This document shows positions 5,120 to 44,917 of a DNA stretch of 64,000 nt, piece after piece. The notes beneath the pieces are model-generated. The model made no database searches. It saw only the letters and a list, made by a program, of their open reading frames with translations, and was not told where the DNA came from. Position numbers and translations under genes: made by a program. Origin of the DNA: Escherichia coli (GTDB taxonomy: Bacteria > Pseudomonadota > Gammaproteobacteria > Enterobacterales > Enterobacteriaceae); assembly GCF_044647545.1 (NCBI RefSeq), contig NZ_CP172818.1; one strand, written 5' to 3'. How positions within the stretch are numbered: position 1 is the first letter of the stretch; each line of letters begins with the position of its first letter.

Positions 5120-5204
5120 AGGCCAGAAATCCAGACTATCAATACTGACCGAACCAATCCCCCAAATACCATAATAATCGGCAATCAGACAGTAATTAAA
5201 TACC

Positions 5205-5495
5205 TAACACTTACTCTCATACTTATTTTTCCCCAAACCTTATCCCCACGACCAAACGACAAAAATAAACATCATATAGAAATTGATACCAGAAACCCCC
5301 CCATCTTTACACATAAACCACACCCACAAACGACGCAAGAAGACGATAAACCAAAAAAGAAAACCCCCCAAACGAAAAAAAAAAAAAGGAAAACCAAAAA
5401 AAAAAAAAAAAAAAAAAAAAAAAGAAAAAAAAAAGAAAAAAAAAAAAAAAAGAAAGGGAAAAAAATAAAAAAGAAAAAAAAAAAAAAAAAGATAG
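5205..5495. repeat. low-complexity A-rich tract (plus strand); core 5381-5490 is roughly 90% A with an uninterrupted A28 run at 5396-5423
   Basis: Direct inspection; 5205-5380 is already nearly G-free A/C-rich sequence that degrades progressively into poly(A); normal composition resumes abruptly at about 5491 (gatagcatgttcgctgac). Confidence 0.9.
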
Positions 5496-16546: not shown

Positions 16547-16564
16547 GTTAAACGGAGCTTAAAC
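16547..16564 (-). promoter_or_regulatory. PhoP box (GTTTAA-N5-GTTTAA direct repeat) upstream of mgrR
   Basis: Minus strand reads gtttaagctccgtttaac. Confidence 0.6.
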
Positions 16565-17449
16565 TCGGTGAATCACGTTTTGTTCGTCAATAAACATACA
16601 GCGATTTCTTCCGGTTTGCTTACCCTCATACATTGCCCGGTCCGCTCTTCCAATGACCACATCCAGAGGCTCTTCAGGAAATGCGCGACTCACACCTGCT
16701 GTCACGGTAATGTTGATATGCCCTTCAGAATGTGTGATGGCATGGTTATCGACTAACTGGCAAATTCTGATACCTGCACGACATGCTTCTTCATCATTAT
16801 CCGCTTTGACAATAATGATAAATTCTTCGCCCCCGTAGCGATAAACCGTTTCGTAATCACGCGTCCAACTGGCTAAGTAAGTTGCCAGGGTGCGTAATAC
16901 TACATCGCCGATTAAATGCCCGTAGGTATCATTAACCAATTTAAATCGGTCAATATCCAACAACATTAAATAAAGATTCAGAGGCTCAGCGTTGCGTAAC
17001 TGATGATCAAAGGATTCATCAAGAACCCGACGACCCGGCAATCCCGTCAAAACATCCATATTGCTACGGATCGTCAGCAAATAAATTTTGTAATCGGTTA
17101 ATGCCGCAGTAAAAGAAAGCAACCCTTCCTGAAAGGCGTCGAAATGCGCGTCCTGCCAGTGATTTTCAACAATAGCCAACATTAATTCCCGACCACAGTT
17201 ATGCATATGTTGATGGGCAGAATCCATTAGCCGAACGTAAGGTAATTCATCGTTATCGAGTGGCCCCAGATGATCAATCCACCGACCAAACTGGCACAGT
17301 CCATAAGAATGGTTATCCGTTATTTCTGGCTTACTGGCATCTCTCGCGACCACGCTGTGAAACATACTTACCAGCCACTGGTAGTGGGCATCGATAGCCT
17401 TATTGAGATTTAACAAGATGGCATCAATTTCCGTTGTCTTCTTGATCAT
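16559..17449 (-). CDS. dgcZ: zinc-regulated diguanylate cyclase DgcZ (YdeH), 296 aa
   Basis: GGEEF motif (YRYGGEEFIIIV); internal Met MIKKTTEIDAILL... Confidence 0.9.
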   Translation of the reverse strand: MIKKTTEIDAILLNLNKAIDAHYQWLVSMFHSVVARDASKPEITDNHSYGLCQFGRWIDHLGPLDNDELPYVRLMDSAHQHMHNCGRELMLAIVENHWQDAHFDAFQEGLLSFTAALTDYKIYLLTIRSNMDVLTGLPGRRVLDESFDHQLRNAEPLNLYLMLLDIDRFKLVNDTYGHLIGDVVLRTLATYLASWTRDYETVYRYGGEEFIIIVKADNDEEACRAGIRICQLVDNHAITHSEGHINITVTAGVSRAFPEEPLDVVIGRADRAMYEGKQTGRNRCMFIDEQNVIHRV

Positions 17450-17703
17450 TGCCACTCCTTTTTCACAGTTCCTTGTGCGCGCTATTCTAACGAGAGAAAA
17501 GCAAAATTACGTCAATATTTTCATAGAAATCCGAAGTTATGAGCCATCTCTGAGATAACATTGTGATTTAAAACAAAATCAGTAGATAAAAAAGTGTTTA
17601 ATTCTGTAAATTAACTCTGCATTATCGCAATTAAAAGGATGACAAATAGCATAACCCAATACCCTAATGGCCCAGTAGTTCAGGCCATCAGGCTAATTTA
17701 TTT

Positions 17704-18096
17704 TTATTTCTGCAACTGAGTGACCCGAACGACGGCCGGCGCGCTTTTCTTATCCAGACTGCCGCTAATGTTGATCATCTGGTCCGGCTGAACTTCTCGT
17801 CCATCAAAGACGGCCGCAGGAATAACAACATTAATTTCACCGCTCTTATCGCGAAAAACGTAACGGTCCTCTCCTTTGTGAGAAATCAAATTACCGCGTA
17901 GTGAAACCGAAGCGCCATCGTGCATGGTTTTTGCGAAATCAACGGTCATTTTTTTTGCATCGTCGGTTCCGCGATAGCCATCTTCTATTGCATGAGGCGG
18001 CGGTGGCGCTGCATCCTGTTTTAAACCGCCCGGGTCATCTGCCAACGCATAAGGCATGACAAGAAAACTTGCTAATACAATGGCCTGAAATTTCAT
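17704..18096 (-). CDS. ydeI: OB-fold (BOF/YgiW family) periplasmic protein YdeI, 130 aa
   Basis: 130-aa ORF with signal peptide [19 protein letters not shown]. Confidence 0.85.
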
Positions 18097-18298
18097 ACTG
18101 ACTCCTTAATTGCGTTTGGTTTGACTTATTAAGTCTGGTTGCTATTTTTATAATTGACAATTAAGATTACTTCCAATTGTTATAAGGCATTTAAAATCAG
18201 GTAACTAGCTGTCAAATATTCAGAGAATTTAACTCACTAAGGTTAAGAAGAAGATTAAAGAGTCTTAAACATATTTCAGAATAATCAGATTTATAAAT

Positions 18299-18414
18299 TT
18301 GAAAATTATTATAACGGAAGGGTATACAAAAAAAGATTTTGCTGGCGACTGCGAAACGGCATTCGCATTAGCGGTGAAGTTTGCCCTCGCCCAGCTGCTG
18401 CAATTACTGCTATA
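18299..18414 (+). pseudogene. ydeJ: short remnant resembling the C-terminus of CinA-like YdeJ; most of the gene appears absent
   Basis: Frame ending ...DFAGDCETAFALAVKFALAQLLQLLL* 46 bp before the convergent dcp stop; only about 360 bp separate ydeI from dcp, no ATG and no upstream CinA-domain coding sequence. Confidence 0.4.
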
Positions 18415-18459
18415 ACGAGGCTGGTCTGGCGATAAATCCAGGCCAGCCATTGGTGGTGT

Positions 18460-20505
18460 TTATACGTTCAAGCCACGATGTTGCAGCATCGGCATAATCT
18501 GAGGTGCCTTACCGCGCCATTGTCGATACAGGCGTTCCAGATCCTCGCTGTTACCTCTGGAAAGGATCGCCTCGCGAAAACGCAGCCCATTTTCACGCGT
18601 TAATCCGCCCTGCTCAACAAACCACTGATAACCATCATCGGCCAACATTTGCGTCCACAGATAAGCGTAATAACCCGCGGCATATCCGCCACCAAAAATA
18701 TGGGCGAAATAACTGCTGCGATAGCGTGGCGGTATAGCGGGAAGATCCATATTTTCCGCCACCAGCGCCCGCAATTCGAAATCATCGACATCCTGCATTG
18801 CTTCGTTTTCTTCCAGGCAATGCCAGCGCATATCGAGAAGTGCGGCGCTAAGCAGTTCGCTCATCTCATACCCTTTATTGAACAGGCTGGCATTACGCAT
18901 TTTCTGTTGCAGTTCGTCAGGCATTGCTGCCCCGCTCTGATAATGCCGGGCGTAGCGAGCGAATACCTGCGGATGCGTTGCCCAGTGTTCGTTGATTTGC
19001 GACGGAAATTCGACAAAATCACGCGGCGTGTTGGTGCCGGAAAGCGTAGCATAACGCTGGCAGGCAAACAGGCCGTGCAGCGTATGACCAAATTCATGGA
19101 ATAAGGTTATTACATCATCCCAGAGTAACAACGCAGGCTCCCCAGCAGCGGGTTTCTGATAATTGCAGACGTTATAAATTACCGGATGCGTTTCATTAAG
19201 CGTTGATTGCTCAACAAAATTGCCCATCCATGCACCGCCGCTTTTTGAATCACGGGCGAAGAAATCACCGTAAAATAACGCCAGCCCCACGCCATTATGA
19301 TCAAAAATTTCCCACACCCGAACGTCAGGATGGTAGACAGGAATATCAAAACGTTCGACAAACTTAATACCGAAGAGCTGATTCGCAGTCCAGAATACAC
19401 CTTCATTCAACACCGTGTTTAATTCAAAATATGGCTTGAGCTGCGATTCATCGAGATCGAATTTCTCACGTCTTACCTGCTCGGCATAAAATGCCCAGTC
19501 CCACGGCTGCGCGCTAAACCCGCCCTGCTGCTTATCGATAACCGCCTGTATGGAGGCTAATTCATCGCTCGCACGTTGACGCGCCGCTGGAACAATTTCC
19601 CGCATAAAGTTGAGCGCTGCTTCTGGCGTTTTTGCCATCTGATCGGCGATTTTCCATGCGGCATAATGAGGAAAACCAAGCAGTTTCGCCTGCTGCGCGC
19701 GGATCTCCACCAGACGTTGAATGATAGCGCGGGTATCATTGGCATCATTTTTTTCCGCTCGCATCCAGCCCGCAGTAAACAGTTTTTCACGCGTCGCGCG
19801 ATCGCACAGTTCAGCAAGCGCTGGTTGTTGGGTGGTATTCAGCAGCGGAATCAGCCATTTGTTATACAGACCTTTCTCGCGAGCCGCCTCTGCCGCCAGC
19901 GCAATCTCTTGCTCACTCATTCCTGCCAGCTGCGCGATATCGTTCACAACCAGACCGCCGGATTTATTTGCTGCCAGTAACCGCTGGTTAAACTGGCTGG
20001 TCAGGGTCGCAGCTTCTGTATTCAGTACTTTTAATTTTGCTTTATCAGCTTGCTTAAGTTTGGCTCCGGCAAGGACAAAACGTTGATGAATCACCTCCAC
20101 CAGGCGGATGGATTCACTATCAAGCCCCAGGGATTCACGGCGCTGCCAGACAGCATCTACCCGCGCGAATAATTCCCCGTTCAGATAGATATCATTCGCA
20201 AGTTCCGCCAGTTCAGCGGAAAACTGTTCATCAAGACGCTGTAATTCATCATTGGTATGCGCCGCAGTCATCGCAAAAAAGACGCTGGTAACGCGGGTAA
20301 GTAATTCTCCGCTTTGTTCCAGTGCCAGAATAGTATTGTTGAAATCAGGTGTTTGCGGGTTAAGCGCGATGGCAGCAATTTCTGCCCGCTTTTGCTGCAT
20401 TCCCTCATCGAATGCCGGGCGATAGTGATGATTGGCAATTTGATCAAAATGGGGAGCCAGATACGGCAGTGTGCTTTGCACAAGGAAAGGATTCATTGTT
20501 GTCAT
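18460..20505 (-). CDS. dcp: peptidyl-dipeptidase Dcp, 681 aa
   Basis: M3 zinc-metallopeptidase motif HEFGH; start taken at MTTMNPFLVQ... Confidence 0.95.
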   Translation of the reverse strand: MTTMNPFLVQSTLPYLAPHFDQIANHHYRPAFDEGMQQKRAEIAAIALNPQTPDFNNTILALEQSGELLTRVTSVFFAMTAAHTNDELQRLDEQFSAELAELANDIYLNGELFARVDAVWQRRESLGLDSESIRLVEVIHQRFVLAGAKLKQADKAKLKVLNTEAATLTSQFNQRLLAANKSGGLVVNDIAQLAGMSEQEIALAAEAAREKGLYNKWLIPLLNTTQQPALAELCDRATREKLFTAGWMRAEKNDANDTRAIIQRLVEIRAQQAKLLGFPHYAAWKIADQMAKTPEAALNFMREIVPAARQRASDELASIQAVIDKQQGGFSAQPWDWAFYAEQVRREKFDLDESQLKPYFELNTVLNEGVFWTANQLFGIKFVERFDIPVYHPDVRVWEIFDHNGVGLALFYGDFFARDSKSGGAWMGNFVEQSTLNETHPVIYNVCNYQKPAAGEPALLLWDDVITLFHEFGHTLHGLFACQRYATLSGTNTPRDFVEFPSQINEHWATHPQVFARYARHYQSGAAMPDELQQKMRNASLFNKGYEMSELLSAALLDMRWHCLEENEAMQDVDDFELRALVAENMDLPAIPPRYRSSYFAHIFGGGYAAGYYAYLWTQMLADDGYQWFVEQGGLTRENGLRFREAILSRGNSEDLERLYRQWRGKAPQIMPMLQHRGLNV

Positions 20506-27436: not shown

Positions 27437-28011
27437 CTACGGCAGTGCTGGCCATTCAATATCCTGTGCAGTTGACGTATCAACACGGTTCAGCAATACC
27501 CGATACTTTTTCCATGCTTCCAGCAACGGGGTTTCTTCCTCCGTTGCAATTTCCAGATCTGCAGCATCCTGAAGCGGCGCAATATGCTCACTGGCTACCT
27601 GCATCAGGTTGTTTTTTTTTCTTCCGCTTCCCGTATCCGAAACAGTTTTTCTGCTTCCTCATCATTCACCCAGGATACGCCGTCCCACTTCTGATACTCC
27701 CCTGCTGGCGACAACCAGGTGACATTCTCTGGTAGCGGTCCGAGTTCAGAAATAAACAATGCGTCCCCCGACGCCACGTCATAGACCGTTTTACCACGAT
27801 GGTCTTCAACAATATTCCACGATTCATTTTCACTGTTAAAAACTGCCACAAAGCCAGCAGGAATTTCCGGTGGGGCGATATCTGTAGAATTAGCTGGCAG
27901 CCCTGTATGAGGTGGAATATATGCGTCACCTTCACCAATAAACTCATTAGTTCCGGCCAGCAGGTTATAAATTTTTACGGTACGTGATTGTTCACTCATT
28001 CTGAATGCCAT
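27437..28011 (-). pseudogene. tfaQ: tail fibre assembly protein TfaQ, frameshifted at a 9-nt homopolymer (27612-27620)
   Basis: N-terminal frame stops after ...EAEEKKTT at 27604; the C-terminal part ([22 protein letters not shown]...DIEWPALP*) continues in another frame to a stop at 27437-27439. Confidence 0.7.

Positions 28012-44256: not shown

Positions 44257-44917
<661 letters not shown>

Follow-up and report, generated by a model that had tools for sequence, protein, structure and literature searches.

YdeJ is a CinA/PncC-domain-only paralogue without NMN deamidase activity (PMC3855486). In Salmonella, ydeJ is present as STM14_1830 (PMC7387798) and has been renamed RdsA, regulator of DNA supercoiling (Duprey and Groisman 2020, PMC7387798). 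The Salmonella rdsA promoter is anticorrelated with negative supercoiling, and deletion of the rdsA open reading frame leaves cells that are viable and whose DNA is more negatively supercoiled (PMC7387798). We treat RdsA of Salmonella Typhimurium and YdeJ as the same gene by name, with the orthology taken from that work rather than from an alignment. In E. coli K-12 MG1655, ydeJ (b1537, 172 aa, 1624773-1625291, plus strand) lies between ydeI (1624105-1624497, minus strand) and dcp (from 1625335, minus strand). The ydeI-ydeJ spacer of K-12 is bound by RcdA, whose box reads TTGTnnACA (PMC3535384). RefSeq and NCBIfam (family NF002972) call YdeJ a '2-oxo-tetronate isomerase'; the MG1655 annotation calls it 'PF02464 family protein YdeJ'. 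In the literature, it is b2739 of E. coli that is assigned 2-oxo-tetronate isomerase activity (EC 5.3.1.35, OtnI). The name may have been mis-assigned for YdeJ, and a search for a paper supporting it returned none.

The ydeI-dcp interval and the ydeJ remnant

We investigated this locus in a 64,000-nucleotide stretch of E. coli DNA, referred to throughout as the window. An earlier note, made from the letters of the window alone, had placed a gene of about 170 codons between ydeI and dcp in K-12 and had estimated that only about 360 bp separate the two genes here. That order matches MG1655, where ydeJ occupies an 837-bp interval, and the interval in the window measured 363 bp (18097-18459). The features of the locus, with ydfG as the gene beyond dcp in the order of open reading frames, are as follows.

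16559-17455, minus strand: dgcZ, the flank of ydeI in the window.
17704-18096, minus strand: ydeI, intact, 130 aa, a YdeI family OB-fold stress-tolerance protein (open reading frame listing; DNA identical to ydeI of strain FDAARGOS_497, WP_022645713.1).
18097-18335, no strand: retained part of the divergent ydeI-ydeJ spacer, 239 of about 275 bp, 26.8% GC (alignment to MG1655).
18335-18336, no strand: deletion junction, at which MG1655 1624735-1625211 (477 bp) is absent and the TA of the common allele is missing too.
18336-18415, plus strand: 3' remnant of ydeJ, a pseudogene with two bases of codon 147, codons 148-172 (FAGDCETAFALAVKFALAQLLQLLL) and TAA.
18299-18415, plus strand: mechanically called 38-codon open reading frame from TTG, overlapping the ydeJ remnant (open reading frame listing).
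18419-18448, no strand: hairpin with an 11-bp stem (GGCTGGTCTGG / CCAGGCCAGCC) between the convergent stops of ydeJ and dcp.
18460-20505, minus strand: dcp, peptidyl-dipeptidase Dcp, intact, 681 aa from MTTMNPF (open reading frame listing).

Comparison of window positions 17600-18700 with MG1655 by blastn gave two collinear blocks with 477 bp missing between them. The left block pairs window 17600-18335 with MG1655 1624001-1624734 at 95.5% identity, and the right block pairs window 18336-18700 with MG1655 1625212-1625575 at 96.2% identity. The absent stretch, MG1655 1624735-1625211, comprises 38 bp of leader, the GTG start codon (1624773), codons 1-146 and the first base of codon 147; the native start codon and ribosome-binding site of ydeJ both lie within it and are absent from the window. 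A four-way alignment placed the break identically in the window, in FDAARGOS_497 and in strain 81009. What is left occupies the orthologous position of ydeJ, on the plus strand between ydeI and dcp and convergent with dcp. Homology to ydeJ starts at 18336, the phenylalanine codon lies at 18338-18340, and codons 148-172 with the stop span 18338-18415; the TAA itself is at 18413-18415, one base downstream of where it had been placed before (18412-18414). Over these last 25 codons the protein identity to K-12 YdeJ is 88%, with four nucleotide changes of which three alter the amino acid, and the stub of strain 81009 carries an additional L-to-R change.

The 38-codon frame that starts at TTG 18299 ends in DFAGDCETAFALAVKFALAQLLQLLL and the stop. 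Its first part, from TTG to KKD (18299-18337), is not ydeJ coding sequence, while the frame as a whole matches positions 144-172 of the 175 of NF002972 with an E value of 4e-7. NF002972 is an NCBIfam equivalog for YdeJ (CinA/PncC domain, PF02464) with a curated cut-off of 201 bits; the 38-residue product scores 29.9 bits and therefore falls short of family membership, against 329 bits for a full K-12-type YdeJ. A tblastn search found a single ydeJ-like coding signal in the whole window, at 18317-18382. Alignment, family match and tblastn thus bear out the earlier proposal that ydeJ survives here solely as a C-terminal remnant. Such a relic cannot make YdeJ and presumably has no function of its own.

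The DNA upstream of the stub had been described as AT-rich and, next to the remnant, A-rich. The composition is as described, with 26.8% GC in the spacer of the window and 28.4% in that of K-12. By alignment, the AT-rich DNA is the native ydeI-ydeJ spacer: positions 18097-18335 hold the upstream region of ydeI together with the DNA that preceded the last 38 bp before the former ydeJ start. Beside the junction, the A-run ACAAAAAAAG is likewise native and is present in all 1786 genomes with the deletion allele described below; K-12 reads ACAGAAAAAG at this place. A consensus scan of 17600-18600 returned one promoter-like match on the plus strand (TTGACT at 18121 and TATTTT at 18148) and one terminator-like site, neither of which was better than those found in shuffled sequences. 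No Rfam family matched between 17000 and 19000 at E values up to 1, and the RcdA box TTGTnnACA had no exact match in the spacer of either the window or K-12, only sites with one mismatch.

Downstream of the stub, the hairpin at 18419-18448 begins 3 bp past the ydeJ stop and 11 bp past the dcp stop on the opposite strand. The 71 nt from 18405 to 18475 fold with -26.6 kcal/mol on the plus strand (z -2.7) and -22.3 kcal/mol on the minus strand (z -3.0), which beats almost all shuffled sequences. The hairpin is conserved in K-12, has no strong U-tract and was passed over by the consensus terminator scan. It is probably, as a prediction, a transcript-end structure shared by ydeJ and dcp.

Distribution of the deletion among E. 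coli genomes

We compared window positions 17600-18700 with a set of 5426 complete E. coli genomes by megablast, and the matches fell into three length classes. Annotated examples are strain 8A for the class with full ydeJ, FDAARGOS_497 for the form seen in the window and strain 81009 for a shorter form. The interior of ydeJ was found in 3618 genomes and the junction of the window, searched with an 80-bp probe, in 1786, or about a third; together these account for 5404 of the 5426. At least 80% of the junction probe was covered in 1785 genomes, which aligned at 95-99% identity. The same junction was also recovered, with its TA, from four metagenome contigs. Since an identical break recurs in 1786 complete genomes and four metagenome contigs, we regard the gap of about 475 bp as a natural allele, a real and common polymorphism of the species and not a sequence error. 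A natural deletion had been one of the two options left by the earlier note.

The deletion is already on record, genome by genome, in RefSeq annotation, which also supports its being natural. In both FDAARGOS_497 and 81009, the stub stands in the PGAP annotation as a pseudogene of 81 bp, 'incomplete; missing N-terminus', and an older annotation lists a hypothetical protein with the same missing-N-terminus flag. A search of the literature on ydeJ, including ydeJ as a pseudogene, did not return a paper describing the deletion. The closest annotated counterpart is EGY17_RS28010 of FDAARGOS_497 (NZ_CP033850.1 4080656-4080736), which has the same locus, flanking genes and break point as the window. 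However, that locus keeps the TA at the junction; the window lacks it, and as a result TTG 18299 is in frame with the stub.

The shorter form proved to contain a second deletion, whose junction is found in 1123 of the 5426 genomes and which also truncates ydeI. In strain 81009 (NZ_CP021179.1), 505 bp are lost, corresponding to window 17793-18297. The spacer is gone, as are 304 bp from the 5' end of ydeI, and two pseudogene stubs are left back to back; in the window ydeI is intact. The ydeJ junction of the nested allele is identical to the common form, TA included, and the second deletion therefore arose in an allele that already had the first. Subtraction leaves about 663 genomes with the arrangement of the window, in which ydeI is intact and ydeJ is a stub. 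Carriers of the nested allele are presumably mostly of B2/ExPEC lineages, an assumption that we make from the strain identities 81009, DSM 30083 and ExPEC XM.

Sequence irregularities and the short open reading frame

The junction in the window differs from the common one by two bases. The common allele reads AAAAAAAG-TA-ATTTTGC, that is AAAAAAAGTAATTTTGC, and the window reads AAAAAAAGATTTTGC. Among the matches listed, all of the best junction matches stood at 97.6% (80/82), with the TA as the sole difference, and none of the 5426 complete genomes reached 99% identity to the junction probe of the window. The TA-less sequence AAAAAAAGATTTTGC had no exact match in the 5426 genomes or in metagenome contigs, whereas a control containing the TA was found. 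Over 22,064 aligned positions (window 5487-27548), comparison with FDAARGOS_497 yielded one mismatch, at 5490, and one 2-bp gap, at 18335/18336. The mismatch is at the edge of a corrupted stretch, and the TA loss is the only indel in 22 kb that are otherwise identical.

Whether the absence of TA is a sequence or assembly error or a real mutation private to this strain is, in our estimate, evenly balanced. An error would account for a form seen in none of the 1786 allele-carrying genomes and in no metagenome contig, and for its being the sole indel against FDAARGOS_497 at a site that adjoins a run of seven A and a run of four T, in a window that has other corrupted stretches. Those stretches, however, keep their A (a single A among 184 lost bases), unlike a loss of one T and one A. 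The source strain is also not among the genomes compared, since the window departs from FDAARGOS_497 at 27548, so that this strain may have a variant of its own in a neutral pseudogene.

The earlier note's second option for the missing gene itself was a corrupted or collapsed segment. In favour of this reading, degenerate segments do occur elsewhere in the window, at 5159-5487 and at about 44390-44450. The pattern of those segments, in which G, T and C drop out progressively into poly-A, is absent from 18097-18459, which is identical to FDAARGOS_497 except for the TA. Together with the native A-run beside the junction and a break point shared by 1786 independent complete genomes and four metagenome contigs, this makes an artefactual origin of the missing ydeJ highly improbable, and only the 2-bp detail could be an error.

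The degenerate segments are observations in their own right. The stretch 5159-5487 lies in a sensor diguanylate cyclase gene (EGY17_RS21580 in FDAARGOS_497), and compared with the otherwise identical FDAARGOS_497 it lacks 74 G, 66 T, 43 C and 1 A, 184 bases in all. The loss begins with G and goes on to T and C until the sequence is near-pure poly-A, and it becomes normal again abruptly at about 5488; it looks like a sequence artefact and not like biology. The region at about 44340-44450 resembles it in look, with a rising A content followed by some 60 bases of poly-A with isolated C's (about 44390-44450) and then normal sequence (cgcctgcgtg). At 27548, within what is left of a tail fibre assembly gene that follows pinQ, the near-identity to FDAARGOS_497 ends; the next stretch, a prophage region (rspA/rspB, ydfU and others), is about 96% like the Qin region of K-12. 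No genome among the 5426 complete ones matched the whole window. Given the poly-A degenerations and the unique 2-bp difference, other oddities of the window should not be interpreted until they have been compared with a close reference.

The missing TA also bears on the short open reading frame. TTG 18299 had been named as the only start candidate for the remnant. In the frame as it stands in the window this is correct, but the candidate is peculiar to the window: it is the missing TA alone that brings TTG into frame with the stub, and in the common allele the frame from TTG ends in TKKVILLATAKRHSH and a stop before it reaches the remnant. We considered whether the 38 codons at 18299-18415 might be a functional micropeptide gene built on the C-terminal helix of YdeJ. 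The frame does exist, and the regulatory DNA upstream of it is largely kept. Against such a gene stand the shift of frame that the TA imposes in the 1786 common-allele genomes, the lack of a Shine-Dalgarno-like motif upstream of TTG on inspection of the sequence, the predominance of amino acid-altering changes in the stub, to which 81009 adds another, and the loss, in 1123 of the 1786 carriers, of the DNA immediately upstream, up to 18297. A micropeptide gene is therefore very hard to credit, and we continue to regard the remnant as a pseudogene.

Origin and meaning of the deletion

With the gap taken as a natural allele, its direction can be considered. A scan of contigs for YdeJ, of which the best 80 of 600 matched stretches were used, gave Enterobacter, Lelliottia and distant CinA proteins, with no Escherichia or Salmonella loci. 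A YdeJ homologue (56%) and a YdeI homologue (62%) are divergent neighbours about 1.1 kb from each other in both Enterobacter chuandaensis (L007, 1475-3468) and Lelliottia nimipressuralis (L008, 1478-3471); dcp was not found in these ydeI-ydeJ loci. The divergent pair in these genera indicates that the pairing is older than the Escherichia arrangement. Since the 3' end of ydeJ is kept in place and orientation in the short form and the gene is present in Salmonella, Enterobacter and Lelliottia, ydeJ is, on comparative grounds, ancestral and the short form derived. The opposite, in which a short ancestral form gained ydeJ by insertion in K-12-like lineages, has nothing in its favour beyond the 4-5% by which the flanks of the two allele classes diverge, and its probability is negligible given that the stop of ydeJ and the 25 codons before it sit in the right place and orientation and that the gene is found in Salmonella (PMC7387798) and adjoins ydeI in Enterobacter and Lelliottia.

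The break points in the intact alleles of K-12, ZH142 and O157:H7 read AAAAAG/CAAATCACC on the left and GGTTATGCA/TTTTGC on the right, where the slash marks the break. Direct repeats of at least 4 bp at both break points were found in none of the three, which share 1-2 bp at most. One reading of the common junction, AAAAAAAG-TAA-TTTTGC, joins the left flank as far as CAA, its C changed to T, to TTTTGC. We therefore envisage that ydeJ was removed by illegitimate, essentially homology-independent recombination. Very probably, one ancient deletion of about 475 bp took codons 1-146 with their GTG start, together with the ribosome-binding site and the last 38 bp of the leader. The identity of the junction across genomes argues for a single origin, after which the allele would have become common in E. 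coli, whether by spread or by inheritance. The residue, consisting of an AT-rich spacer, 25 terminal codons and a hairpin shared with dcp, would then be a neutral leftover.

For the locus itself, these results mean that the short ydeI-dcp interval is biology and that the stub is a correctly recognised pseudogene, which matters little alone. The comparison with Salmonella, where RdsA acts back on DNA supercoiling (PMC7387798), gives it a wider context. There the rdsA null was engineered, and the window holds what, by analogy, would amount to a natural one. Roughly one in three of the complete E. coli genomes lacks YdeJ/RdsA. It is conceivable, if unlikely, that these natural rdsA (ydeJ) nulls, among which major extraintestinal pathogenic lineages apparently figure, have a different supercoiling set-point, in which case the retained upstream region would drive only a 25-codon stub. 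In either case, strains with the allele offer a knock-out made by nature in which the role of YdeJ/RdsA in E. coli could be tested.
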